This document shows positions 7,480 to 27,872 of a stretch of DNA of 32,000 bases, piece after piece. Source of the DNA: Acaryochloris marina MBIC11017 (GTDB taxonomy: Bacteria; Cyanobacteriota; Cyanobacteriia; Thermosynechococcales; Thermosynechococcaceae); the NCBI RefSeq assembly GCF_000018105.1, contig NC_009925.1:6120001-6152000 (forward strand). Reading direction: 5' to 3'. Both the position numbers and the translations under genes were made by a program. The notes below the pieces were generated by a model. It was not told where the DNA came from and made no database searches. It saw only the letters and a program-made list of their open reading frames with translations. How positions within the stretch are numbered: the first letter of the stretch is position 1; each line of letters begins with the position of its first letter.

Positions 7480-8535
7480 TTACAACGCATTGCCTCTAGG
7501 TAAAACCTCTTCAGGGAAGACAAAATTTTCGTGAATTTGATCCTGAGGAGCCATCCAAGCTCTAAGACCCTCATTGAGCAGGATGTTTTTGGTATAAAAC
7601 GTTTCAAATTCTGGATCTTCTGCTGCACGGATCTCTTGGCTAACAAAATCATAGGCTCTCATGTTGAGGGCAATGCCGACTAGCCCAATCGCCGAAGCCC
7701 ACAGCCCAGTCACGGGAACAAATAACATAAAGAAGTGCAGCCAGCGCTTGTTCGAAAAGGCTATTCCAAAGATCTGAGACCAGAAGCGATTGGCCGTTAC
7801 CATGGAATAGGTTTCTTCTGACTGGGTGGGACTAAAACCACTAAAGGTGTTGGCATCTTTAGTGTCCTCAAATAAAGTGTTTTCTACCGTTGCCCCATGG
7901 ATGGCGCAGAGCAGTGCCCCACCTAAGATACCCGCCACCCCCATCATATGAAAGGGATTAAGGGTCAGGTTATGAAACCCTTGGACAAATAGTAAAAAGC
8001 GGAAAATACTGGCTACGCCCCAACTGGGAGCAAAGAACCAACTGGATTGCCCTAAGGGATACATTAAAAAAACAGAAACAAAAACGGCAATGGGACCACT
8101 AAAAGCAACTGCGTTATAAGGTCGCACATTTACTAGCCGAGCAATTTCAAATTGCCGCAGCATAAAACCAATCAGCCCAAAGGCACCATGTAAAGTCACA
8201 AAGTTCCACATGCCCCCAAGTTGGCACCATCGAGTAAAATCTCCTCTAGCCTCTGGTCCCCACAGCAAGAGTAAGGAATGTCCCATACTATCCGCAGGGG
8301 TAGAGACGGCTGCAGTTAGAAAATTGCACCCTTCGAGATAAGAACTCGCGAGGCCGTGGGTATACCACGAGGTGACAAAAGTCGTTCCCGTAAACCATCC
8401 GCCAATGGACAAGAACGCACAGGGGAATAGTAATAACCCTGACCAGCCTATAAAGACAAAGCGATCGCGTTTCAACCAATCGTCGAGGACATCGAACCAG
8501 CCTCGCTCTTGGACACGTCCAAGTGCAACTGTCAT
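7480..8535 (-). CDS. psbD: Photosystem II D2 reaction-centre protein, stand-alone copy with no overlapping psbC
   Basis: The 351-aa product [26 protein letters not shown]...[12 protein letters not shown] is near-identical along its length to canonical D2. The start is set at ATG 8535..8533, preceded by GGAGGTT (complement of 8541-8547). The ORF-track TTG at 8553 would add 6 residues that are not conserved. Confidence 0.95.
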
Positions 8536-8824
8536 AGAATAACCTCCAGACAAGTGATGAGTAATCTTGATTTGTGGATGCAGTTATAACTCAGTTCCTA
8601 ACTGCATGAGCAGCCCACCAGGAAACATCGCAGATGAAGATCCGGTGTTGTGCTGTGTCACTCCATGTGGCTGCAGGCAAGTTTAGAATATTCCACCCAT
8701 CTCTTACGAATTGCTGCTTGAGCAATCAGATAGGTTAACGGAATTATCTGCCGGTAGAAGCTTTATCTGACAAAAAACAGAAGGCTTAATGCGCTAAATG
8801 TGCCCTTAAAATTTCAAAAAAGAC

Positions 8825-9043
8825 TTAGCTGGTAAAACTCAATCTTTTAGGGCTACGCAAATGGTGCTTTGACAACATCACAGGCCGATAAAATATTCGT
8901 TGTTTAGGGTGCTTTTTGGATGCCTGATAAGTGTCTGATAGCTTAGAAGGGACTTCTATCCAGCAATGGGGACAAAACCAGCTTACTCTCTCAAAGCGGA
9001 TTTGTCGTAGCAATGGATTCGAGCAGCAAGGACAGTCAGTCAT
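8825..9043 (-). CDS. Small zinc-ribbon-like protein (CPCC...CPHC)
   Basis: The 72-aa ORF starts MTDCPCCSNPLLRQIRFERVSWFCPHCWIEVP, with two CxxC pairs. It resembles a small Cys-rich family conserved in cyanobacteria. The basic C-terminal tail is less convincing. Confidence 0.4.
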   Translation of the reverse strand: MTDCPCCSNPLLRQIRFERVSWFCPHCWIEVPSKLSDTYQASKKHPKQRIFYRPVMLSKHHLRSPKRLSFTS

Positions 9044-9255
9044 AAGCTTTGTAGAAACGATTGCCGGGGAAAATGATTCTGTTCGGTATTAACCTTAGTT
9101 TGCAATCATGAGGAAGTTGTGAGGATAGACTTAAAGATCTCCGGTTAAGCCGAGAGGGAAGCGTCACTATCCCTCTCTTTGCAAAGGTTTTATACCTTCT
9201 GGAAGATGGGCTAATGGGTATGTAATAATCATCGCAATCTGAAACCTTCAAGTCT

Positions 9256-11370
9256 ATGCGCCGTTGGCTGAAAAAACTATACGACCACCCATTTTTGCCT
9301 GCGGTAGCTTCTCTGGGAAATACCCCACAAGATCGGCAGGTTGCTGAGCAATGGTCAACCTGGATGAAACAGCAGTGGTATGACCATGGCCTCAAGGAGC
9401 TGAAGCAGCAGCGCAATTTAATGACTGAGGTGCGACAGGCGTTGAAGAAGCAGTTGGGTGAGGAACATGTGGTCGTGGAGACCATGAATTTTTCACGGGA
9501 TGAGTGGATTCAAATTAATTTGTCGATCAATGATCGAGTCGCAGCCCGTAATGAACAGCAAGGGCTGATAGAGCAACCAGATGCCATTGTTGATCGCGCC
9601 AAGATGCTCTTGGATAGCCGAGACTGGTCAGAAGTTGCCGCTGGATTAGCAGTGGTCACTGGACGTCGCTGCACAGAGCTATTACAAACGGCTGAATTTA
9701 ATTATTCCTCTCCCTATAGTGTGTGGTTCAATGGAGCCTTGAAGCGTCGGAAAGAAGCGATGGAATTACGCTTTGAAATTCCCACCCTTGCACCGGCTAA
9801 ACATGCGATCGCAGCCCTAGATCTCCTCCGGCAGCGAGTCAATACCGTGGGGTTGGAACTGGAAACCATCAATCGAAAGTACAGTCCTCCCGTGGCTAAA
9901 GCGTGCGATCGCTATTTTGCTGAACTGATTCCTCAACGAGCTGGGCGGGGCAATCTCTATACTCATCTATTTCGGACGATCTATGCTCGGATCGCTACCC
10001 ATTGGTATGCTCCACCCACTGTGGCGGATGTTGAGTATATGGCAGCGATCCAAGGTCATTTTTTGATCCAAAATGAGCAAGATACGACGCTTCGCCGGTC
10101 CCTTGCCTCCACTCGACACTACAATGACTACAAAATTGGGGACGGCGAGGGAAATATAGATGGCCGTCAAGGCATCCGACTACGGGATCCAGGAGTACAG
10201 GTCCTGCAAGTCTTCCAAAGTGCCGCCCCTCAACTTGAACCAGACCCCCTCACTGAATGGGAAGAACAACCAATGATCCGACCAGTTAAACGTCAACGCC
10301 AACGCCCCAAGCGGGAAATTTCGACCCTAAGGCTTTATCAAGATGAACGGGATCGCTGGCTTCAAGTGCTCGACCAGTTTGAACCTCGGGGTACCCAGCA
10401 AGAAAAGATGTCCGTGTTGCTGGAATGGCTGGAGCAATCCTTAAAAGACGGTACCTCTGTTCATGAAACCCCGGACGATTTAGAACAGCTGGCTCACCTC
10501 TTTATTGAGCCACTGCAACCCCTCAGAGATCCTGAGGCCATCCGCACTTTGTGTCAGCAGGAAATTGCTGACCTAGAGCAGGACTACTATCTAGAAGATT
10601 ACTTGCCGCTGTATAAACGGGCGATCGCAGAAGCCATTCGCTCGGGACAGCTGCCTTTATTAGACGGAAAAACAGCAGAACGAACCAGCTATACCAAAGA
10701 GGGCGTCAATTACGAGCAGCGCACCCATTATGCCCTATTATTTCTAGACAATTTGGATCATGAATTGGAAGCTCCCAAATCTGATCCGCCGCAGCGAGTT
10801 ACACCTATAAAATCGGACATTACACCTACAAATGATTCAACGCTTGATCAAACAACCCCACCATCCGCAACCGATCAAAAATTAGATACCCTGACCACGG
10901 TGCTGACACAGCTTGTCCAAGTGATGCAGGGGGAGCAGGCCGCTCCACACCCCACTCCAGAGCTGGATACTGCTCAGAATGAAAGCGCCCAAAATAATGG
11001 CCACGCTCATCCGGCTGAATCTCCTGAACTTTCTACTGCAGATCCAGACCCTTCTTCTCCTAAAAAGAGAGGAAGGCGGGCAGGGAAGACGTCTGCCGCT
11101 GCAGAGGCCAAAATCTCCCAGGCCATTAATGCAATCATGGACTACAACAATGTTTCCACTCGGACCTTTGATGAAAAATGGATGATTAGCTCATCTATCC
11201 TCAAACGGCTCACTAAGTCCTACCAAGGCGTGATTCAGCGAGTCCTAGATGCCCGCAAAGATGAAATTAAGCTTCACCATCAGGCCCATGGATTGAAAGG
11301 CCGTCATAATACTCGCCACGGTCGAGCTGGGGTCACCATTGATCAAGTGATTCAGCTGGACTTTGATTAA
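9256..11370 (+). CDS. Tyrosine-recombinase-fold protein resembling protelomerase/telomere resolvase (TelK/TelN/ResT-like), with a long acidic Pro/Thr-rich linker and a basic C-terminal domain
   Basis: The N-terminal ~320 aa carry a candidate catalytic set: R137/R138 (VTGRRCTELL), K163 (GALKRRK; the R-to-K spacing of ~25 matches ResT and TelK as I recall them), H237-x-x-R240 (THLFRTIYA), H268 (IQGH) and Y289 or Y292 (TRHYNDY). Residues ~500-610 are low-complexity (TPTNDSTLDQTTPPSATDQ..PDPSSPKKRGRRAGK). A ~90-aa C-terminal domain follows. Confidence 0.5.
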   Translation: MRRWLKKLYDHPFLPAVASLGNTPQDRQVAEQWSTWMKQQWYDHGLKELKQQRNLMTEVRQALKKQLGEEHVVVETMNFSRDEWIQINLSINDRVAARNEQQGLIEQPDAIVDRAKMLLDSRDWSEVAAGLAVVTGRRCTELLQTAEFNYSSPYSVWFNGALKRRKEAMELRFEIPTLAPAKHAIAALDLLRQRVNTVGLELETINRKYSPPVAKACDRYFAELIPQRAGRGNLYTHLFRTIYARIATHWYAPPTVADVEYMAAIQGHFLIQNEQDTTLRRSLASTRHYNDYKIGDGEGNIDGRQGIRLRDPGVQVLQVFQSAAPQLEPDPLTEWEEQPMIRPVKRQRQRPKREISTLRLYQDERDRWLQVLDQFEPRGTQQEKMSVLLEWLEQSLKDGTSVHETPDDLEQLAHLFIEPLQPLRDPEAIRTLCQQEIADLEQDYYLEDYLPLYKRAIAEAIRSGQLPLLDGKTAERTSYTKEGVNYEQRTHYALLFLDNLDHELEAPKSDPPQRVTPIKSDITPTNDSTLDQTTPPSATDQKLDTLTTVLTQLVQVMQGEQAAPHPTPELDTAQNESAQNNGHAHPAESPELSTADPDPSSPKKRGRRAGKTSAAAEAKISQAINAIMDYNNVSTRTFDEKWMISSSILKRLTKSYQGVIQRVLDARKDEIKLHHQAHGLKGRHNTRHGRAGVTIDQVIQLDFD

Positions 11371-11710
11371 GTGTTTGACAATGGCAGATTAACTCGCTAT
11401 TCTGTTCCCTCAAAACATCAATGGTTGGAGGGAATGGTCGTCTATTACAACTCTAGTAAATAGGCATCTAACGACAGAAGCTGCGTTTGGAGGCAGGTTA
11501 CGCTTATAAGCTATGAATAGTAATAGTTTTAGGCCCTTTCAATAAATATTGCTTGTTGAGAATTCAATCGGCTTGCAAATGCTGTAAGACCAAAATGGGT
11601 TCATCACCATCGTGCATTTATACAAAATCGCCTTGTATCACAGCTATGGTCGTTTGAGGCCAAATAGGGAGAGAGCTACTTTTTGGGTGAAATGAAATTC
11701 TACCCTTTGT

Positions 11711-14134
11711 TCAGGAATCCATATGTTTAGCCAAGAGCTTTTTCGCCATGGGTTTGTATAGCAGGTAGAAGATAGTCTCGATATACCGGAGCATATCTTC
11801 CCTTTTTTCCCTAGAAGTGTAGTTCCAAAAACCGTATATTTTAGCGAGGGAAAGTAATCGACTGGTGTGAATTTTCCAAGTGTAGGTAGTGTAGACCCGC
11901 TCTATCGCTTGTTCTGAAATTTGTTGCCAATAGTCTGGATTGGTTGCACATTCTTTGGCAAACTCTAGCAATTTAGTCGCAATTTCTTCATTATGGGTGG
12001 GGTTGATATAAAAGCCATCGATGCCATCTCGAATGATTTCTAGTGGTCCCCCAAACCGAGTTGCAAAAGTGGGGAGCCCAGAAATCATGGCTTCTAAAAC
12101 CGTTAACCCAAAGGCTTCAAATAGGGCGGGTTGAACAAAAATACCTTTGTGATCGGCAACAACTCGATAGATTTCACCTGAATCTTGCTTGGGAAAGCGT
12201 ACCCCTAACCAACGGATTTTGCCATGCAAATTGTATTGATCAATTATTCGGTATAGTCGCTCGATTTCGTTGATTTCTTCGTGATCCACTGAATCACTGG
12301 TTCTCAGCTTTCCAGCCACTAGAATGAGGTTGTAGTGGTCTTGGAGTTGAGGATGTTGGCCAAAGCATTCTGCTAAACCCGTCAAATTTTTAATCCGATC
12401 CAAACGAGCCATGGAAAACAGTGGCGGTTTTCCTGGATTGTCTAAATGGCCAAAGACATGTTCAGGGTCTTCGAGGGTAAACAGCAATTCTTCCAGTCGG
12501 TCTATATCCCCGGGTGTTCTCTCCTGATGCCGTGTGAAGGGAAAATAGACACTTTCGTTGACGCCAGGGGGAACAACATTAAATTTAGGACTGAACAATT
12601 CGGCTCCATAAACAACATGGTACAGATCGGGCATTGTAAAGGAGCGATAGCTTTCATACTGACCAATGGTATCGGGGCGACCCGCGATTTCTTGATAGGT
12701 ACTAGTGACAATAAAATTCGCCGCATTCATGGCAATTAGATCGGCGGTAAACTGCATGGAGAAGTGATACTGCTCCTCTAAATCCTGCCAATACAGATTA
12801 CTGAACAGATACTTCGACTTTTCAAGAGCATGGGCAACGTTGCACTGGGTTACTCCTAACCGACGGGAGAGGAGAAAGGCGACTAAGTTACCGTCTGTAT
12901 AGTTACCCACGATCAAATCCGGTAAGCCCCGAAACTCGGCCAGTAGTTCCCGCTCAGCATCGATGGCGTAGGTCTCTAGGTAGGGCCATATCTCAAATCG
13001 GGAAATCCAGTTCTGGGTGTATTTGGGATTTAGCTCTCGGAAGGGAACGCGCAAAATCCATACATTGTCGGTGGCATGAACCTTTTCTAGCCGCTGATTG
13101 CAGAGGGTTCCTTCACTATTGGGAATCAATCGAGACAAAATAATAAGCTTTGGCTGAACTTCTAAGGTATCTAGCCCTGCAAACTGAAGATCTTCTTGCA
13201 GCTGCTTCTCTAGGCTTTTTGCTTGATCAAGGACATAAACAACCTGCCCACCCGTATCGGGTCTGCCCAAAACCCCTTCTTGACCAAAGTAGCCGTGAAT
13301 TGAAACCAGCACGATCTTAAAGATCATGGGAATGCGAGAGATAAAGGCTTCCAACACCTGATCGTCAGGAGAATCGATTAGCTCATCCAGCATTTCTAAA
13401 GTTTCTAGAACTCTGGCCGCGGTATTCCCCCAACCTGGTTCAAAACCCAACTCTTGGAAGTTAAATCTAAATTCCGGATAGGGCTGTTCTGGGGGGAGTC
13501 CCCCCACTAAGCTAATGGCTTGCTTTACGCACTCAGATAGATGTTCGGGGCTTTGGATCCTTTGATTAATCAGAAGTTGAGTGCCGTTATAGGAATGAAG
13601 TTTGAGGAATGAAAAGAGAGAGAAGAGCCATTGTTGAGGTCCCTCAAACATCTTGCTCGATAAGTATCGGTTGAGATATTGAACGCCTCGACCAATATTC
13701 TTGGGATCTCGGATGACGGGAGAATAGTCATAGAAAGGACGGAAATCAATTTCGAGGATGTCGCCCTCTTGGGGATGATAGTGCCCTACAAATCGATCGC
13801 GCAGATCCAATAGCTCATCAATCTGGATTTGCTCATAGACTAATTCTCGAGGATCTAAGCGGTAAGCTTCTTCAGATGCGATTTTGGGTCGAATAATCAG
13901 ATAGAGGTTTTCATCCTCGACCAGGATTTCCTGGGTGTAGTAAATCAGCTTTTGCAATCGTGATGAGAGTTGAAATGCAGGAGTCTTCTCATATTTCTCG
14001 CAGAAGGTGTCAAATACGCTCAGAATGTCGTTGCGGAGTAAATAGCGTTCGGGTTGATTATGAACTTCACTGGCAAACTGTCGCAAATCCGTTTTTTCAT
14101 CGCTATTTAAGACCGCTTGAATCAACTGAGACAT
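11711..14134 (-). CDS. susA: Sucrose synthase
   Basis: The 807-aa product has a sucrose-synthase N-terminal region followed by a GT-B glycosyltransferase domain (SIHGYFGQEGVLGRPDTGGQVVYVLDQ ... FVQPALFEAFGLTVLEAMISGLPTFATRFGGPLEII). Length and motifs match plant and cyanobacterial SuS. Confidence 0.9.
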   Translation of the reverse strand: MSQLIQAVLNSDEKTDLRQFASEVHNQPERYLLRNDILSVFDTFCEKYEKTPAFQLSSRLQKLIYYTQEILVEDENLYLIIRPKIASEEAYRLDPRELVYEQIQIDELLDLRDRFVGHYHPQEGDILEIDFRPFYDYSPVIRDPKNIGRGVQYLNRYLSSKMFEGPQQWLFSLFSFLKLHSYNGTQLLINQRIQSPEHLSECVKQAISLVGGLPPEQPYPEFRFNFQELGFEPGWGNTAARVLETLEMLDELIDSPDDQVLEAFISRIPMIFKIVLVSIHGYFGQEGVLGRPDTGGQVVYVLDQAKSLEKQLQEDLQFAGLDTLEVQPKLIILSRLIPNSEGTLCNQRLEKVHATDNVWILRVPFRELNPKYTQNWISRFEIWPYLETYAIDAERELLAEFRGLPDLIVGNYTDGNLVAFLLSRRLGVTQCNVAHALEKSKYLFSNLYWQDLEEQYHFSMQFTADLIAMNAANFIVTSTYQEIAGRPDTIGQYESYRSFTMPDLYHVVYGAELFSPKFNVVPPGVNESVYFPFTRHQERTPGDIDRLEELLFTLEDPEHVFGHLDNPGKPPLFSMARLDRIKNLTGLAECFGQHPQLQDHYNLILVAGKLRTSDSVDHEEINEIERLYRIIDQYNLHGKIRWLGVRFPKQDSGEIYRVVADHKGIFVQPALFEAFGLTVLEAMISGLPTFATRFGGPLEIIRDGIDGFYINPTHNEEIATKLLEFAKECATNPDYWQQISEQAIERVYTTYTWKIHTSRLLSLAKIYGFWNYTSREKREDMLRYIETIFYLLYKPMAKKLLAKHMDS

Positions 14135-14770: not shown

Positions 14771-16273
14771 TTAGAACTCAAGTCGCTGATATTCTGCGAC
14801 TGAGGCTGCTGCAGGGCGGGCTCTTTGGCGAGCCCAGTCCCGTAAGGCCATTACCTGCTCGGTCATTGTCTTGGAGAGGGGTAAGGTGGAGCGGCTGGCG
14901 GCAATAATATCGAGTTGCGTGAATTCGCGATTTTGGGAAAAAGCTTCGTACATGGCGGCGATGACGACCTGTTCAATTTCTGCTCCCGAAAAGCCTTCGC
15001 AAACGTTTGCGAGTTCAGCTAAGTTAAAACGGGAAATATCTCGACGACGCTGGGAGAGATGAATATTAAAAATTTGCTGGCGCTCTTGGGGGTTGGGCAA
15101 ATCGACAAAGAAAATTTCGTCAAAACGGCCTTTACGCAGAAATTCTCCAGGTAAGCGTTCAACCCGGTTAGCGGTAGCCATCACAAAGACGGGAGAAGTC
15201 TTTTCCTGCATCCAGGTTAAAAACGACCCGAAAATTCGGCTGGAGGTGCCGCCGTCTGAATCTGCCGATCCGGCACCACCCGCAAAGGCCTTGTCCATCT
15301 CATCAATAAATAAGATAGCTGGAGAAATAGACTCAGCGGTTTTGAGGGCACTTCGTAAATTGGCTTCTGACCGTCCTACGGTGGAGCCGTCATAGACACG
15401 TCCCATATCTAAGCGGAGGAGGGGTAAGCCCCATAACCGTGAAGTGGTTTTGGCAATCAGGGACTTTCCGCATCCAGGAACCCCCAAAATTAACATGCCT
15501 TTGGGTTGGGGTAAGCCATATTCCCGTGCCCGTTCAGTAAAGGCTTCCGACCGCTGGGTCAGCCAATGCTTCAATTCTTCTAAACCACCGACGGCATCAA
15601 TGGTGTGATCACTTTCGATATAGTCTAGAATGCCATTGCGGCGAATAAGCTGCTTCTTTTCGGAGAGCACAACTTCAACTTCGGCTTCTGTGAGTTGACC
15701 CGCTGTTACTTTGGCTTTGCGATAAACTTTTTCAGCTTCATCTTTGGTCAATCCGAGGGCTGCTTTTAGCAGTTTTTCCCGTGCTGGAGTGCCTAGGGAC
15801 CGCCCTGTAAACTGCAACTGCTGATCCAGAACATCTTGGAGTTCAGCCAGGTTAGGGAAGGGATAGTCGAGAACGACCATTTCCGTCTCCAACTCATGGG
15901 GAACCTGATGAACAGGAGACATCAAGATGATGGTTTTTCGGGTGTTTTTAAAGCTTGCGATCGCATCTCGTAACCATCGCATCACTTCAGCATTATCTAG
16001 AAACGGATGCAGATCCTTAAAAATAAAGATGGCGTCTTGACGTTCCCCAATGGCTGATTGGATCGCCATCTGGGGAGAAACAGTACTATGTTGGGTGGAA
16101 CTGCGGGGCTGTCCATGCTCAACGGTTCCCCGAGTCAACGTCCAAACAAAAACCTTTCGTTCCTGCCTTTGAGCAATGGCAGCAATCGCTTCCTCTGCCC
16201 GTTCTTCCTCGGGGGTAACGAGGTAGATCAAAGGATATTGAGCTTGAATAAGAATACTTAGCTCTTCTTTCAT
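14771..16273 (-). CDS. ycf46: AAA+ ATPase, Ycf46-type
   Basis: The 500-aa product has the N-terminal QAQYPLIYLVTPEEERAE region typical of Ycf46. The C-terminal AAA module has Walker A GVPGCGKS, Walker B ILFIDEMDK and second-region-of-homology-like MATANRVERLPGEFLRKGRFDEIFFVDLP. Confidence 0.85.
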   Translation of the reverse strand: MKEELSILIQAQYPLIYLVTPEEERAEEAIAAIAQRQERKVFVWTLTRGTVEHGQPRSSTQHSTVSPQMAIQSAIGERQDAIFIFKDLHPFLDNAEVMRWLRDAIASFKNTRKTIILMSPVHQVPHELETEMVVLDYPFPNLAELQDVLDQQLQFTGRSLGTPAREKLLKAALGLTKDEAEKVYRKAKVTAGQLTEAEVEVVLSEKKQLIRRNGILDYIESDHTIDAVGGLEELKHWLTQRSEAFTERAREYGLPQPKGMLILGVPGCGKSLIAKTTSRLWGLPLLRLDMGRVYDGSTVGRSEANLRSALKTAESISPAILFIDEMDKAFAGGAGSADSDGGTSSRIFGSFLTWMQEKTSPVFVMATANRVERLPGEFLRKGRFDEIFFVDLPNPQERQQIFNIHLSQRRRDISRFNLAELANVCEGFSGAEIEQVVIAAMYEAFSQNREFTQLDIIAASRSTLPLSKTMTEQVMALRDWARQRARPAAASVAEYQRLEF

Positions 16274-20569: not shown

Positions 20570-23197
20570 TTATGCATCAGCAACTAATATTTGGGATTCA
20601 ATATTGTCCCAAACTGATTGTGAGAATGATAATGCAGACTTCTGACAGTGAATGATAACAATCATTGCTTTGAGATAATGATTGAGGGAATCCAATTCTT
20701 CCAAGGAAAAGCTGACCAAATCGAACTTGACTTTAAACGCATTAATCCAGATCTGCTGGGCTCGCTTAGCGAACACTAAATTCTCCTCAAAAGGCGCTGA
20801 GTCACTGGGGATATCACCTTTTAGTGATTCAAGATCGTTCACTAATTTATTAAAGTCGACAGAGTTGAATATTTTTGCTTCTTTGAACTTTTTGGCGCTA
20901 ATGATTGAAATTTTAATAGCACGTAAAAATGCATTTTTATGGGTGCTTTCTATGCCGCAATACATCACTGTATCGGTTGTTCTATTGCGATCTAAAGCCA
21001 GAGTTAGTAGTCGTTTGTGCGTTAGGGTGCCTGTAAGCTCACGAGCTAAATCATAGGTATAGTACAGTTTCTTTTTGAGATTGGCATCCTCTGGATTTGC
21101 GAAACGGGTAATAGCATAGAGAGGATGTACACCAGGGAAAAAGAGTCCAATTGCAGTCGCTCTTTTGGCTGCTACCTTGAAATCACCTTCCGTATTTTGA
21201 GTCATTAGATCCGCACATCGAAGTAACTTCTGGAGTGCTGAAGAATTTTCCACATAGCTATGGGCATGCTTTGCCATGATTTGTAAAATTTTGTCAGCCT
21301 TACTCATACCTGATAGCAATAAGAAAATTTCTTGCCACCGATCATCCGTTAGATATTCTCCAATCAACTCCTGTAAAAGTGAGTCATCATGTTTAGACTG
21401 AGCAAAAATGTACTGGGCAGCTAGAAATTCTTGAATGGTTAAGTGTGAGAAGGAGTACACTGCCTCGACCCGCTCAACCAATAGTCCATGCTGTAATTCA
21501 ATTGATTTCAAGACTTTCTTGCCATCAATTAACGCAACATCCGGCAGCATTTCACTCAATAGATCTTCAAGCTGCTGGGTTAGGGTTCGTCTTGTGATAA
21601 ATAGTTCATCTCTTTGAAAGGCATCAAACGCAATTTTTGAAAGAATAATCTCTTTGCGTTTGATGGCTAGTCCTTTATAAATACTTTCTCTGGGCACATC
21701 TTTTTCAGCATCCCACTCTTCTAAGAGCACCCACAGAGACTTTTCATACAAGGTTGCTCTATGTTTCGGGAACTGTCCTTCCCTTTGAAAAACGAGACAA
21801 AGCATGGTGAGCAGTAATGGTGTTCGAGTCAGCTCTTTGGCGGCTGTATTACTGTCAGTATTCAGTTGCTCCCAACATTTTCGACCCTGTTGGGGCTGCT
21901 TATGAAACCATTTTTCTATAAATTGCCCGATCTGATGGTCATCAAATTCAGCAATGACAACATCTGTAAAGTTGCGGAGATTATATTTATAGGCCGCAGG
22001 TCTACAGGTAATGATGAACCGATTTTGGTGAAATCGATTGGCAAAATCTTGAATTTTTGATATTGCCTCGCTCATTTGTTCTATCGGTACTTCATCTAGC
22101 CCATCTAGCAATAACAGCAAATTCCCTTGAACCAGAGCCTTCTCTAAAAAATGTTGAGGTTTAGGAAATCCACAAATTTTGAATTCTTCAATAATTGCGG
22201 ATTCCAGATCAACTTCTGTAAAACTAAATTTTTTAAGCTCAATAAAGACGGGAATGCAGTTATGCTGATAGCCACCTTGATCCTTATGATTTAGAGTTTC
22301 TAGGCCTATTTTCCGTAAGAAGGTGGATTTGCCTGTACCAGGACCGCCTAATACCATTAGATATTGATATGTATTGGCTATCTCTAAGCCAGACTGTCGT
22401 TTAGCCCGCTTTTCTTCTCGCAAAAAAACTTTTCGCTGCCGGTAGTTCTCTTCCAGCCAATTAATGGACGCAGAGCTAAGAACGGAATCTTCATTGAGTA
22501 AGTGCATCGTGGTATAGAGGGAGTCCAGCTGGGCTGGCCCTCTCATCCCCAATACCTTCAAAATGCCATGACGTTCCGAATACCGTTTCAAATACTCTTC
22601 CGTAGAAAAATAGCATTGCTGATGGCTATGGGGACCAGATTGATAGTTGAGTGAAGCGTTTAGTGTTCTATTTCTTTCGGCAACGCTATAAGTAACACCT
22701 TGTAAAGTGGGAATTGATTGGCTTGTGTTATAACCATAGTCAGTGACTTGTTTAGATTTAGAGGGTCTAAGACGCTCCCATTCGTCGTGAAACTTTGCTA
22801 AATTCTCTGCAGTACTGTACCGATTAAACCAAAGCTTAATTGTAAAATTCCACTTGTGCGATCCTCTTGGCTGAGACCGGTTATCTACAAGGATATTTAG
22901 GAACTTTTCTAATAGTTTGAGTGAATTTTTGACTTGATTGTTATTAAGCTGACCATGATAGGTATCAGTCTGGGTTAGGCTCACTAAAGCCTGAACCGTT
23001 GTCTCGACCACTAGTTGATAGTCTGTCTGCCAATTGACTCTGATTTTTGATCGGAGTTGCTCACTAATTTCGAATTCATCATTGGCATAGGCAATTAATC
23101 CTTCAAGCAGACGCTTTGTCCTTCGTCTAGGGACTGGACCATAGGTTAAATGATTTCTCCCATTCTCATGATCGGGATATTGGCCAGAGTCAAACAT
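20570..23197 (-). CDS. NACHT-domain STAND NTPase (875 aa) with uncharacterised N- and C-terminal regions
   Basis: Walker A is GGPGTGKST (residues 284-292, nt 22322-22348). Walker B is LLLLLDGLDEV (nt 22088-22120). FIITCRP and TRTPLLLTMLC are NACHT hallmarks. The N-terminal ~270 aa contain a block (LNNNQVKNSLKLLEKFLNILVDNRSQPRGSHKWNFTIKLWFNR..FHDEWERLRPSKS) that I recall from the N-termini of other cyanobacterial STAND/WD40 proteins. The C-terminal ~400 aa look helical, with no obvious WD40/TPR/LRR periodicity. Confidence 0.85.
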   Translation of the reverse strand: MFDSGQYPDHENGRNHLTYGPVPRRRTKRLLEGLIAYANDEFEISEQLRSKIRVNWQTDYQLVVETTVQALVSLTQTDTYHGQLNNNQVKNSLKLLEKFLNILVDNRSQPRGSHKWNFTIKLWFNRYSTAENLAKFHDEWERLRPSKSKQVTDYGYNTSQSIPTLQGVTYSVAERNRTLNASLNYQSGPHSHQQCYFSTEEYLKRYSERHGILKVLGMRGPAQLDSLYTTMHLLNEDSVLSSASINWLEENYRQRKVFLREEKRAKRQSGLEIANTYQYLMVLGGPGTGKSTFLRKIGLETLNHKDQGGYQHNCIPVFIELKKFSFTEVDLESAIIEEFKICGFPKPQHFLEKALVQGNLLLLLDGLDEVPIEQMSEAISKIQDFANRFHQNRFIITCRPAAYKYNLRNFTDVVIAEFDDHQIGQFIEKWFHKQPQQGRKCWEQLNTDSNTAAKELTRTPLLLTMLCLVFQREGQFPKHRATLYEKSLWVLLEEWDAEKDVPRESIYKGLAIKRKEIILSKIAFDAFQRDELFITRRTLTQQLEDLLSEMLPDVALIDGKKVLKSIELQHGLLVERVEAVYSFSHLTIQEFLAAQYIFAQSKHDDSLLQELIGEYLTDDRWQEIFLLLSGMSKADKILQIMAKHAHSYVENSSALQKLLRCADLMTQNTEGDFKVAAKRATAIGLFFPGVHPLYAITRFANPEDANLKKKLYYTYDLARELTGTLTHKRLLTLALDRNRTTDTVMYCGIESTHKNAFLRAIKISIISAKKFKEAKIFNSVDFNKLVNDLESLKGDIPSDSAPFEENLVFAKRAQQIWINAFKVKFDLVSFSLEELDSLNHYLKAMIVIIHCQKSALSFSQSVWDNIESQILVADA

Positions 23198-26207: not shown

Positions 26208-27872
26208 ATGAAATCACAATGGCTTTCCAAGTATTCGTTATCGTCTGCAGATGCAGAGCGATTAGACCAATTTTTTGACGACATTCAGAAAGAATCGAAG
26301 CTGTTTTTAGGGTATCCCTGTAACGGCATTTTTGATTACTCCCCTCTGTATCGATTTCTGCAATTCCCCCTCAACAATGTGGGGGATCCTTTTCTTGCCA
26401 GTAACTATCACCTCAATACCCACGCTTTTGAATGTGAACTACTGGAAATTTTTCAAGACTTAACCCAAGCTCCTCCGGGAAGTACTTGGGGCTATATTAC
26501 CAATGGTGGAACTGAGGGGAACCATTATGGTTTATTTCTTGCGCGGGAGTTAATGCCAGGGGGCATCGTTTACTATTCTCAAGATGCCCATTACTCCATC
26601 GATAAAATTCTGCGCTGTCTGAATTTAGATAGCATTATGATTCGGAGTCAGCCGGATGGCTCGATGGATTTAGACGATCTGCGAGAGACCTTACGGATTC
26701 ACCGGGATGTGCCGGCGATTGTGTGTGCCACGATTGGAACCACTATGAAAGGGGCCGTTGATGATATTGCTGGAATTCAAGGGATTTTTCAGGATCTAGC
26801 TTTGAAGCGTCATTATCTCCATGCTGATGCAGCTTTGGGGGGGATGGTTCTTCCGTTTATTGATACTGCGCCTCCATGGAACTTTGCGGATGGCATTGAT
26901 AGTATTGCCATTAGTGGCCATAAAATGATTGGTTCGCCGATTCCCTGCGGTGTGGTCTTGGCGAAAAAAGGTAATGTTGATCGAATTGCTCAAAGTGTGG
27001 AATATATCGGCACCTTGGATACCACTCTCAGTGGATCTCGAAATGGCTTTACACCGTTGTTTCTTTGGTATGCATTTCATACGATTGGTGTGGACGGATT
27101 TAAGCAGATCGTGCCGAACTGCTTAAAGATGGCAGACTATGCTATTGCCCAGCTGAATCAACTTGACCGCAATGCTTGGCGACATCCCTATTCCAATATT
27201 GTGGTGTTTGATCGCCCTTCCCCTGTGGTAACCCAGCGATGGCAGTTGGCTTGTAATGGTTCTTTGACTCATCTGATTGCTATGCCCCATGTGGTAAAAG
27301 AGCAAGTTGATCAATTGGTGGCTGATATTCAGTCCTTGGAGTCACCACCAGAACCATCTTTAACCGATCTGCCGGTCTGTGAAACGACTTTAGGGGAAAC
27401 CAACGAAGAAATTACCCTGGTCGGTTCATCTGAAGAGTATTTGCTGACTCAGATATCTGTGGCTTTGGCGTCAGCGGGAATTTCCATTGAAGATATTACG
27501 GCGGTCCAGGCCGCAGGGGGGAGCATCATCCAGCTGAAGGTGAATGACCGGGCTCGGGCATTACAGATTTTGAATGAGCATTTAGATATCGGTCGTTGTC
27601 ATGGTCAGTATCGGCCCTTTAATACAGAATCCGCGACCCAAATGCTGACTCAGGCAGATTATCAGACGGTTAGCCAAGATGCCCTGTTAGTGAAGCTGAA
27701 TGATAAGCCTGGGGCTTTGGCAGAGTTGATGAAGAAATGTCGAGAACATGCGATCTCGATCCGTAGTGTCCGCCTTGTATGGCGAGGACAAGGCAGTGCC
27801 CTGGTTGAAATCGCCTCGGATCAACATCAAACCTTGCAGAGTCTCTTGGTTGATCAGGTTGTTGTGCAATAG
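26208..27872 (+). CDS. hdc: PLP-dependent histidine decarboxylase (group II) fused to two C-terminal ACT domains
   Basis: The sequence is collinear with enterobacterial HDC as I recall it: FLGYPCN, WGYITNGGTEGN, HADAALGGMVLPF and the PLP-lysine motif ISGHKMIGSPIPCG (Lys codon 26922-26924). After ~residue 400 come two beta-alpha-beta-beta-alpha-beta-like ACT modules (ITLVGSSEEYLLTQISVALASAGISIEDITAV.. and LLVKLNDKPGALAELMKKCREHAISIRSVRLV..). The start is set at ATG 26208 (MKSQWLSKYS..); the ORF-track start at 26157 is an upstream alternative. Confidence 0.8.
   Translation: MKSQWLSKYSLSSADAERLDQFFDDIQKESKLFLGYPCNGIFDYSPLYRFLQFPLNNVGDPFLASNYHLNTHAFECELLEIFQDLTQAPPGSTWGYITNGGTEGNHYGLFLARELMPGGIVYYSQDAHYSIDKILRCLNLDSIMIRSQPDGSMDLDDLRETLRIHRDVPAIVCATIGTTMKGAVDDIAGIQGIFQDLALKRHYLHADAALGGMVLPFIDTAPPWNFADGIDSIAISGHKMIGSPIPCGVVLAKKGNVDRIAQSVEYIGTLDTTLSGSRNGFTPLFLWYAFHTIGVDGFKQIVPNCLKMADYAIAQLNQLDRNAWRHPYSNIVVFDRPSPVVTQRWQLACNGSLTHLIAMPHVVKEQVDQLVADIQSLESPPEPSLTDLPVCETTLGETNEEITLVGSSEEYLLTQISVALASAGISIEDITAVQAAGGSIIQLKVNDRARALQILNEHLDIGRCHGQYRPFNTESATQMLTQADYQTVSQDALLVKLNDKPGALAELMKKCREHAISIRSVRLVWRGQGSALVEIASDQHQTLQSLLVDQVVVQ

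Follow-up and report, generated by a model that had tools for sequence, protein, structure and literature searches.

Hairpin-telomere resolvases, or protelomerases, define one of the two bacterial ways to keep linear DNA, and some, such as TelN, serve as biotechnology tools. In Agrobacterium the resolvase gene telA lies on the circular chromosome, and in Borrelia the circular plasmid cp26 carries resT; both enzymes act in trans. Here we analyze a gene of this type in a 32,000-nucleotide stretch of Acaryochloris marina MBIC11017 (NC_009925.1, positions 6,120,001 to 6,152,000 of the forward strand), hereafter called the window. The gene is an open reading frame (ORF) at 9256..11370 on the forward strand that begins with ATG and encodes 704 amino acids followed by a stop codon, and its product is a genuine telomere resolvase, not an ordinary integrase. 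The original prediction, made from the DNA letters alone, had named the known hosts of such enzymes as linear phage-plasmids, Borrelia, and Agrobacterium. That list stood as far as it went but was incomplete, as cyanobacterial protelomerases are known and one of them, TelT from Leptolyngbya ohadii LoPAST, resolves a 2 x 28-bp palindrome into hairpins in vitro (bioRxiv 10.1101/2024.11.13.623437). The gene and the parts of its catalytic region are as follows.

9256..11370, forward strand: telomere resolvase (protelomerase) gene, based on the ORF, a PF16684 score of 105.7 bits, and a 99%-identical protein named 'telomere resolvase'
9256..10215, forward strand: TelA-like core, with an alpha-helical bundle (residues ~1-105), the catalytic domain (residues 108-292), and a conserved tail to F320, from the AlphaFold2 model and Foldseek
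9667..9669, forward strand: R138 codon, equivalent to catalytic R255 of TelA by profile alignment; invariant
9742..9744, forward strand: K163 codon, equivalent to catalytic K286 of TelA by profile alignment; invariant
9964..9975, forward strand: H237-L-F-R240, with R240 equivalent to catalytic R366 of TelA and H237 in the place of TelA Y363 by profile alignment
10057..10059, forward strand: H268 codon, equivalent to catalytic H394 of TelA by profile alignment
10120..10122, forward strand: Y289 codon, probable nucleophile, equivalent to TelA Y405 (alignment A4)
10129-10131, forward strand: Y292 codon, likewise invariant in the family by alignment

The family assignment was made by three kinds of comparison. 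In a Pfam scan, residues 108-292 matched positions 7-181 of the 181-position model for the ResT/TelK catalytic domain (PF16684; E = 2.8e-30, 105.7 bits against a curated cut-off of 27 bits), a domain that is carried by all 120 homologues among the matches listed, and no phage-integrase family was matched even at an E-value limit of 10. When a profile of 75 family members was compared with the Protein Data Bank (PDB), it retrieved TelA (1.3e-20), TelK (1.8e-15), and the catalytic domain of ResT (5e-3). Finally, an AlphaFold2 model of residues 1-335 (predicted local distance difference test, pLDDT, of 83) was superposed by Foldseek on TelA (4e10/4f41) over 313 columns with template modelling (TM) scores of 0.69/0.73 and an E-value of ~1e-10. 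This superposition spans the entire TelA core, in that the N-terminal helical bundle matches that of TelA as the catalytic domain does. The next matches were TelK (E = 2e-8) and ResT (E = 1e-5), and below an E-value of 1e-3 the search returned solely TelA, TelK, and ResT; no Xer protein or integrase was found, and topoisomerase IB and Flp appeared at E-values above 0.1. The predicted telomere-resolvase type is thus borne out. Profile and structure comparisons gave a recombinase fold, catalytic residues that align, and no placement in an integrase or Xer clade, the three points on which the assignment had been staked beforehand. That the protein is an ordinary tyrosine integrase or Xer recombinase misread as a protelomerase is scarcely credible: the H-x-x-R motif formed by H237, where TelA and ResT have Y-x-x-R, is what speaks for it, and we rejected it on the Pfam scan, the PDB profile matches, and the Foldseek result.

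All six motifs of the original prediction were found at the quoted places in the 704-residue ORF, namely TGRRCTE (residues 135-141), ALKRRK (161-166), HLFRTIYA (237-244), IQGH (265-268), TRHYNDY (286-292), and, much further downstream, KKRGRRAGK (603-611). Across 75 sequences the core has 40 invariant columns, and R138, K163, H237, R240, H268, and Y289 are invariant in the 75 relatives, so that the active site is intact. Tyrosine occupies the H237-equivalent position of TelA and ResT, while tyrosine recombinases have a histidine there (PMC3558466); the invariant H237 thereby gives an H-x-x-R motif like that of the classical enzymes. Regarding the choice between Y289 and Y292 as the nucleophile, Y289 is invariant across the family, in a TelA-like Xanthobacter protein ('DLETSFAY'), and in a divergent Gloeocapsopsis resolvase, and Y292 pairs with a Phe of the Xanthobacter protein (alignment A4). 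Y289 is therefore probably the nucleophile, an assignment that rests on this alignment and not on model coordinates; in the same alignment the spacing between H268 and Y289 is about 10 residues longer than in the TelA-like protein, and the pLDDT is low at residues 272-281. The protein is very probably a catalytically competent protelomerase.

TelA of Agrobacterium tumefaciens (4dwp, 4e0g) is the best match in both sequence and structure among the described systems, with the paired residues R138/R255, K163/K286, R240/R366, H268/H394, and Y289/Y405. The PDB chain numbering of TelA equals the native numbering plus 20, an offset confirmed by the Y201A and R205A mutant chains. Identity to TelA is only ~20%, however, and the NCBIfam TelA equivalog NF052462 scored 53.4 bits against a cut-off of 800, by which sequence measure the Acaryochloris protein is a relative of TelA and not an orthologue. 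It also lacks the N-terminal ~100 residues of TelA, has a C-terminal extension of 380 residues, carries H237 in place of Tyr363, and comes from a host in which, unlike that of TelA, no linear replicon is known. In TelA, Tyr201 and the hairpin-stabilizing Arg205 take part in hairpin refolding; they correspond to a near-invariant W84 and an invariant N88 in the profile alignment, which is less certain in that region. TelK and TelN (phiKO2, N15; 2v6e) also match the catalytic core significantly in sequence and structure, and the extra C-terminal module of the Acaryochloris protein, which probably binds DNA, has a conceptual counterpart in the TelK 'stirrup'. In contrast to the TelK and TelN genes, however, the gene in the window has no phage context and no adjacent telRL/tos palindrome, and its C-terminal domain has no fold match to that of TelK. 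ResT of Borrelia (8vs5, catalytic domain) shares the catalytic domain family but is far more distant in sequence, has Tyr at the H237 position, and differs in its accessory domains.

The second half of the protein is less familiar. The parts of this extension are listed below.

10288..10785, forward strand: connector helices (residues ~345-400, family-wide) followed by a folded middle domain to residue ~510, from AlphaFold2, alignment A1, and a ratio of nonsynonymous to synonymous substitution rates (dN/dS) of 0.04-0.09
10786..11085, forward strand: flexible, acidic linker rich in Pro, Thr, and Ser (residues 511-610) with one predicted helix at residues 538-559, from composition and AlphaFold2
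11062-11088, forward strand: basic patch KKRGRRAGK (residues 603-611) at the end of the linker, from composition
11086..11367, forward strand: all-helical C-terminal domain (residues 611-704) with conserved N631, W642, H674, H684, and N685, from AlphaFold2

The extension had been described beforehand as a long, disordered, acidic linker followed by the basic patch and a terminal domain of ~90 residues. The patch is present as described and the terminal domain is an all-helical unit (pLDDT 92-98), but for about 150 residues the description of the linker fails, because AlphaFold2 confidently folds residues ~355-510 into helices and a beta-hairpin (pLDDT mostly above 90); disorder is limited to residues ~519-535 and 562-608 (pLDDT below 50), where the description holds. 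Beyond residue ~400 the middle domain is specific to Acaryochloridaceae, and in other lineages a coiled coil takes its place (alignment A1 and coiled-coil Pfam matches); it has no Pfam, PDB, or BFVD match. The C-terminal half likewise lacks a Pfam family, and fold searches of the PDB and BFVD gave no match (best E-values of 1.1 and 0.2). A word-indexed homology search with the C-terminal domain gave three candidates, whereas an exhaustive search gave the informative set: 250 representative proteins carry the domain, which in nearly all of them sits at the C-terminal end, and PF16684 is matched as well by those of sufficient length. It is present in the very divergent Gloeocapsopsis resolvase as well and matches phrog_34828. 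From this distribution the domain is apparently specific to cyanobacterial protelomerases, and it probably binds DNA by analogy with TelT, for whose C-terminal extension binding to the outer stretches of the DNA is predicted (bioRxiv 10.1101/2024.11.13.623437).

The protein belongs to a large, TelA-like, mostly subtelomeric family that was found here only in cyanobacteria. In species-representative genomes, all 49 family loci bearing a taxon name are cyanobacterial. A search for a phage origin gave only weak matches to Vibrio phage protelomerases, and no family member was found among the viral contigs of IMG/VR. Outside Acaryochloris, the 5' end of the gene typically lies 0.2-2 kb from the end of a contig. 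Among the 28 contigs of at least 8 kb, 13 have the 5' end within 2.1 kb of a contig end, where 3.7 were expected (exact P ~6e-6), and merely 2 have the 3' side near one. Such subtelomeric copies lie, for example, on a 1.53-Mb scaffold (L020) and on a 149.6-kb contig (L061). Perfect palindromes of 53, 45, 23, and 28 bp were found at contig ends (L045, L033, L036, and L043, respectively), which is the signature expected from reading through a hairpin. Several genomes hold three to five family copies, and the Leptolyngbyales have multiple copies per genome. Internal copies also exist, on a 94.7-kb contig beside phycobilisome genes, on pLBX of L. boryana, and on plasmid3 of Chondrocystis.

Among described enzymes, TelT comes from the host group of this family. 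By description it resembles the Acaryochloris protein in its cyanobacterial origin, similar size (81.7 kDa for TelT), and C-terminal extension, and the relatives of the Acaryochloris protein are subtelomeric with palindromic contig ends, as are TelT-type elements. TelT is, however, telomere-adjacent and transposon-borne, whereas the Acaryochloris gene lies mid-chromosome without transposition genes beside it. A search of the retrieved proteins for LIINHFE, the C-terminal peptide of TelT as read from a primer, gave no match.

Some further features of these contig ends are recorded here as observations in their own right. The terminal palindromes of three unrelated contigs (L045:1-53, L033:1-45, and L036:1-23), and also that at L043:11-38, share the center GTTC-T-GAAC. 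This center is odd-numbered, which is unexpected for an evenly staggered protelomerase cut, and could have arisen in assembly at the hairpin tip or reflect flip/flop telomere tips. Leptolyngbyales contig ends beside family genes (the first ~100 nucleotides of L010, L011, L037, and L061, and L042:177-330) carry repeated CTTATCT-type motifs, for example AAATATCTTATCTAACTTA, and AAGCAATTTGTAT motifs are repeated between the telomere and the gene on L045. Both sets may be subtelomeric protein-binding repeats.

The copies in Acaryochloris differ from this subtelomeric pattern. Each genome has one copy, and the proteins form a single clade whose sister is the other Acaryochloridaceae, consistent with vertical inheritance. 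Where Acaryochloris contigs are long enough to tell, 3.9 kb or more separate the 5' side from the contig end, and the gene in the window lies more than 9 kb from both window ends, so that a subtelomeric location was not found for it. In A. marina MBIC10699, the 99%-identical orthologue lies at 2.93-2.96 Mb on chromosome AP026075.1 (6,415,507 bp); with a position of ~2.94 Mb in 6.4 Mb, the gene sits deep inside the chromosome. The identical (100%) protein was seen only on short contigs assembled from sequencing runs. The genes on either side are core genes that vary by species. In A. marina and its closest relatives the flank includes psbD; a 75%-identical orthologue is flanked by LysR, RuvB, RtcB, and urease genes; and a 64%-identical orthologue has DnaB, ribosomal protein L9, and an insertion sequence (IS) element on one side and NIF3 and RecA on the other.

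Selection on the gene is strong. With synonymous divergence (dS) above 1, dN/dS is 0.03-0.065 for the core and 0.09-0.13 for the C-terminal domain, so that with the middle domain the folded domains all fall within 0.03-0.13, and the linker has the highest values in the gene (0.2-0.27). At core positions that are conserved in 60 members outside Acaryochloris, the clade has only 7 specific substitutions, all of them conservative. The low dN/dS and these few conservative changes indicate that the gene is functional and that its core is constrained as in the telomeric relatives. They also bear on a reading in which the gene is a decaying, functionless relic of an integrated linear plasmid or prophage. 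Such an origin might be suggested by the association of the family with plasmid and telomere ends and by the IS elements that lie nearby in some species, but the ORF is full-length in every Acaryochloris species, the active site is invariant, and core genes flank the gene with no surrounding phage genes and no family member in IMG/VR. We consider a relic very improbable and rejected it on the selection analysis, and the prophage-relic option offered in the original prediction is ruled out by the same strong purifying selection.

A separate observation concerns the catalytic region of the two A. marina strains. Between window positions 9256-10245 and the MBIC10699 sequence (L050), synonymous divergence is 0.14 over these first 330 codons and ~0.01 over the remainder of the gene, a difference that suggests a recombination tract over the catalytic region.

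Upstream of the gene, a second ORF and several conserved DNA blocks accompany the Acaryochloris copies.

8825..9043, reverse strand: 72-residue zinc-ribbon ORF (M-x-x-CPCCSN-x-LLRQ...WFCPHCW), divergent to the resolvase gene, from neighbor comparison
9218..9241, forward strand: near-invariant 24-nucleotide element GTATGTAATAATCATCGCAATCTG, -38 to -15 from the ATG, from a seven-species alignment (A5)
9102..9197, forward strand: further conserved blocks GCAATCATGAGGAAGTTGTGAGGAT (9102-9126) and CTTTGCAAAGGTTTTATACCT (9177-9197), from alignment A5

The zinc-ribbon ORF keeps its divergent position next to the gene in six of the seven Acaryochloris species despite altered synteny and is absent beside family genes outside Acaryochloris. 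Pfam, PADLOC, and PHROG gave no match for it, and the word-indexed search returned no homologue. The 24-nucleotide element has at most two substitutions across the seven species even though the synonymous sites of the gene are saturated, and is identical over GTATG.AATAATCATCGCAA (9218-9237 bar one base). It contains an extended -10-like sequence, TGTAATAAT, which overlaps an ATG-TAA start-stop at 9220-9225 that is in frame with the resolvase start codon and 36 nucleotides upstream of it. The element is unique within the window, and no Rfam family matched window positions 8000-12000. It could be an autoregulatory operator. TTGCAAA and GCAATC motifs recur upstream of Leptolyngbyales paralogues.

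Inverted-repeat scans found no palindrome of protelomerase size in either flank of the gene or in all 32 kb, in agreement with the original description of a chromosomal gene without an adjacent palindrome. The best palindrome in the flanks has 14-nucleotide arms with 86% complementarity (11405-11434), and the best in the whole window have 17-18-nucleotide arms with 78-82% complementarity, both within coding regions. Cellular resolvases such as TelA and ResT normally have their target at a distance, and a missing adjacent palindrome is on its own nothing out of the ordinary. With one chromosomal copy, apparently inherited vertically, and no target in the window, the gene product would have to act in trans, as TelA and ResT do. 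We favor an explanation in which a catalytically intact, TelA-like enzyme in Acaryochloris acts in trans on a substrate outside the window. Its likeliest role would be to make or maintain hairpin-ended linear DNA, such as a plasmid, another replicon, or a telRL-type plasmid site, that is missing from current assemblies. As a whole, the proposal that the gene encodes a trans-acting resolvase maintaining hairpin-ended DNA hidden from assemblies has, in our estimate, an even chance of being right. In its favor are the family identity with an intact active site, core constraints shared with telomeric relatives, the telomeric setting of the family elsewhere, the strong selection in Acaryochloris, the internal copies in other lineages, and a candidate site on plasmid pMB09.

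From the precedents of TelA, TelK, and TelT, a dimer of the enzyme would bind an inverted-repeat site. Assisted by R138, K163, H237, R240, and H268, Tyr289 of each subunit would attack the DNA a few bases to either side of the dyad to form 3'-phosphotyrosyl links, after which the short overhangs would fold back and be resealed, yielding a pair of covalently closed hairpins. Outer parts of the site would probably be gripped by the C-terminal helical domain on its linker, together with the basic patch.

Several results weigh against this explanation, the missing palindrome among them. The telomere-tip and subtelomeric motifs of the relatives (GTTCTGAAC and ATCTTATCT) occur in the window at no more than chance frequency. 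Publications and records document no linear replicon in Acaryochloris: the chromosome of the Moss Beach strain is circular and comes with 10 plasmids, verified by end overlaps, and the strain's plasmids pMB09 and pMB10, like pREC1 and pREC4 of MBIC10699, are recorded as circular. No Acaryochloris plasmid encodes a family member. Plasmids of the genus were located through a RecA-based search; an IS-based search gave none. Plasmids of A. marina S15 are labelled 'complete' and flagged as linear (NZ_CP064924.1 and NZ_CP064927.1; L072-L074), but terminal palindromes and inverted repeats are missing from both ends of unnamed15 (NZ_CP064927.1) and from the left end of unnamed8 (NZ_CP064924.1). The S15 flag is thus probably a default, and such flags in GenBank, among them those of pLBX and pLBY in L. 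boryana and of plasmid3 in Chondrocystis, are accordingly weak evidence. The alignment of N88 with TelA R205 also means that the hairpin-refolding chemistry may differ.

One plasmid, pMB09 of Acaryochloris 'Moss Beach' (L070, NZ_CP071726.1), does contain a perfect palindrome of 40 bp, GTGTAGTGCTCTAGAAAGAA/TTCTTTCTAGAGCACTACAC, at 173-212 and again at 27575-27614, whose center GAATTC is the 6-bp center of the TelT site. Both copies belong to a direct duplication of 470 bp (99.6% identity) across the start and end of the record, which is probably an untrimmed assembly overlap. The palindrome is a candidate protelomerase site or, alternatively, a candidate sign of an assembly joined at a palindrome. 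Neither other plasmids nor JGI metagenomes contain it, and being strain-specific it cannot account for the conservation of the gene across the genus, a further point against the favored explanation.

Acaryochloris plasmids also share an element of ~115 nucleotides, with the inverted repeat GACCTCTT...TCATGAT / ATCATGAAAGAGGTC, that was observed on 11 plasmid records from three strains (L070:572-690 and 14939-14993; L069:2391-2452; matches H62-H71) with an identity of 72-88% from one plasmid to another. Its role may be that of a site for replication or partition, or it may be a plasmid RNA.

In the main rival explanation, an ancestral telomere-associated enzyme may have moved into the Acaryochloridaceae chromosome and been exapted for a host function on circular replicons without telomere maintenance. 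The middle domain would have replaced the coiled coil, and in Acaryochloris the enzyme would also have acquired a zinc-ribbon partner. Examples of such a function would be site-specific DNA binding or regulation, processing of palindromes or cruciforms, or a controlled break-and-reseal reaction. We hold this exaptation to be possible, but only tentatively so. Published Acaryochloris genomes are reported as all-circular, and in all species examined a single-copy gene of one clade has core genes as neighbors (psbD; dnaB and recA; ruvB), a persistence that would be unexpected for a gene needed by an accessory plasmid alone; the clade-specific middle domain, the zinc-ribbon ORF in six of seven species, and the 24-nucleotide upstream element fit as well. 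Against it, the constraints on the catalytic core match those in telomere-proximal relatives and all active-site residues are kept, which makes a purely DNA-binding role unlikely, no alternative substrate was identified, and internal copies also occur in other lineages. Such a change would also be without precedent, as we know of no protelomerase with a non-telomeric function. We are more doubtful of the specific proposal that Acaryochloris is all-circular and that the domesticated protelomerase, the zinc-ribbon partner, and the middle domain together carry out a non-telomeric transaction on circular DNA, whether a hairpin-forming break, palindrome or cruciform processing, or regulation through the 24-nucleotide element.

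The enzyme might instead be directed at incoming plasmids with hairpin telomeres, as a weapon or incompatibility factor that either interferes with them or aids the adoption of linear plasmids that lack a resolvase. Telomere-bearing linear replicons with family enzymes are common in other cyanobacteria, Acaryochloris is rich in plasmids, and telomere modules are exchanged by transposons (bioRxiv 10.1101/2024.11.13.623437). However, PADLOC matches neither the enzyme nor the zinc-ribbon ORF, the neighbors are housekeeping and not defense genes, and protelomerase sites co-vary with their enzymes, so that broad action on foreign telomeres is unlikely. We regard this idea, which is pure inference, as improbable.

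The surroundings of the gene in the window were otherwise as predicted with respect to the two neighbors named beforehand, psbD (PF00124) and a sucrose synthase gene (PF00862).

7480-8553, reverse strand: psbD, monocistronic, from PF00124
11711-14134, reverse strand: sucrose synthase, from PF00862

This psbD has no overlapping psbC, which makes it a monocistronic second copy, and its adjacency to the resolvase gene is kept only in the closest relatives (L001 and L002). An ORF of 149 residues on the reverse strand (9036-9485) overlaps the start of the resolvase gene and is probably spurious, as related assemblies call no gene there. Between the stop codons of the resolvase and sucrose synthase genes lies a repeat element of ~300 bp (11391-11690), the edge of which carries the 14-nucleotide imperfect palindrome at 11405-11434. 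It is not present in MBIC10699, where the corresponding gap is 40 bp, and ~76%-identical copies occur on plasmids of several Acaryochloris strains; given this strain-specific insertion and the plasmid copies, it resembles a small mobile element. A large gene for a NACHT/EAD4 STAND-type NTPase (20570-23197, reverse strand) and an IS110-family transposase at the left edge of the window (L053:529-1479) have no evident link to the resolvase gene.

Parts of this picture are already known, as NCBI names the 99%-identical protein 'telomere resolvase [Acaryochloris marina]' and cyanobacterial protelomerases have been described (bioRxiv 10.1101/2024.11.13.623437). Literature searches found no description of a mid-chromosome copy that is kept by selection throughout a genus with an apparently all-circular genome, nor of the zinc-ribbon partner, the near-invariant upstream element, or the cyanobacterial C-terminal domain, an accessory domain without recognizable fold relatives. 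The genus thus keeps one chromosomal copy under strong selection, although reports of its finished genomes describe them as circular. Should the ordinary reading hold, the gene encodes one more trans-acting resolvase, and hairpin-ended DNA that is hidden from assemblies would matter for the finishing and interpretation of cyanobacterial genomes. If exaptation is the true history, no earlier protelomerase would be known to do anything but resolve telomeres, and this one would be the first.

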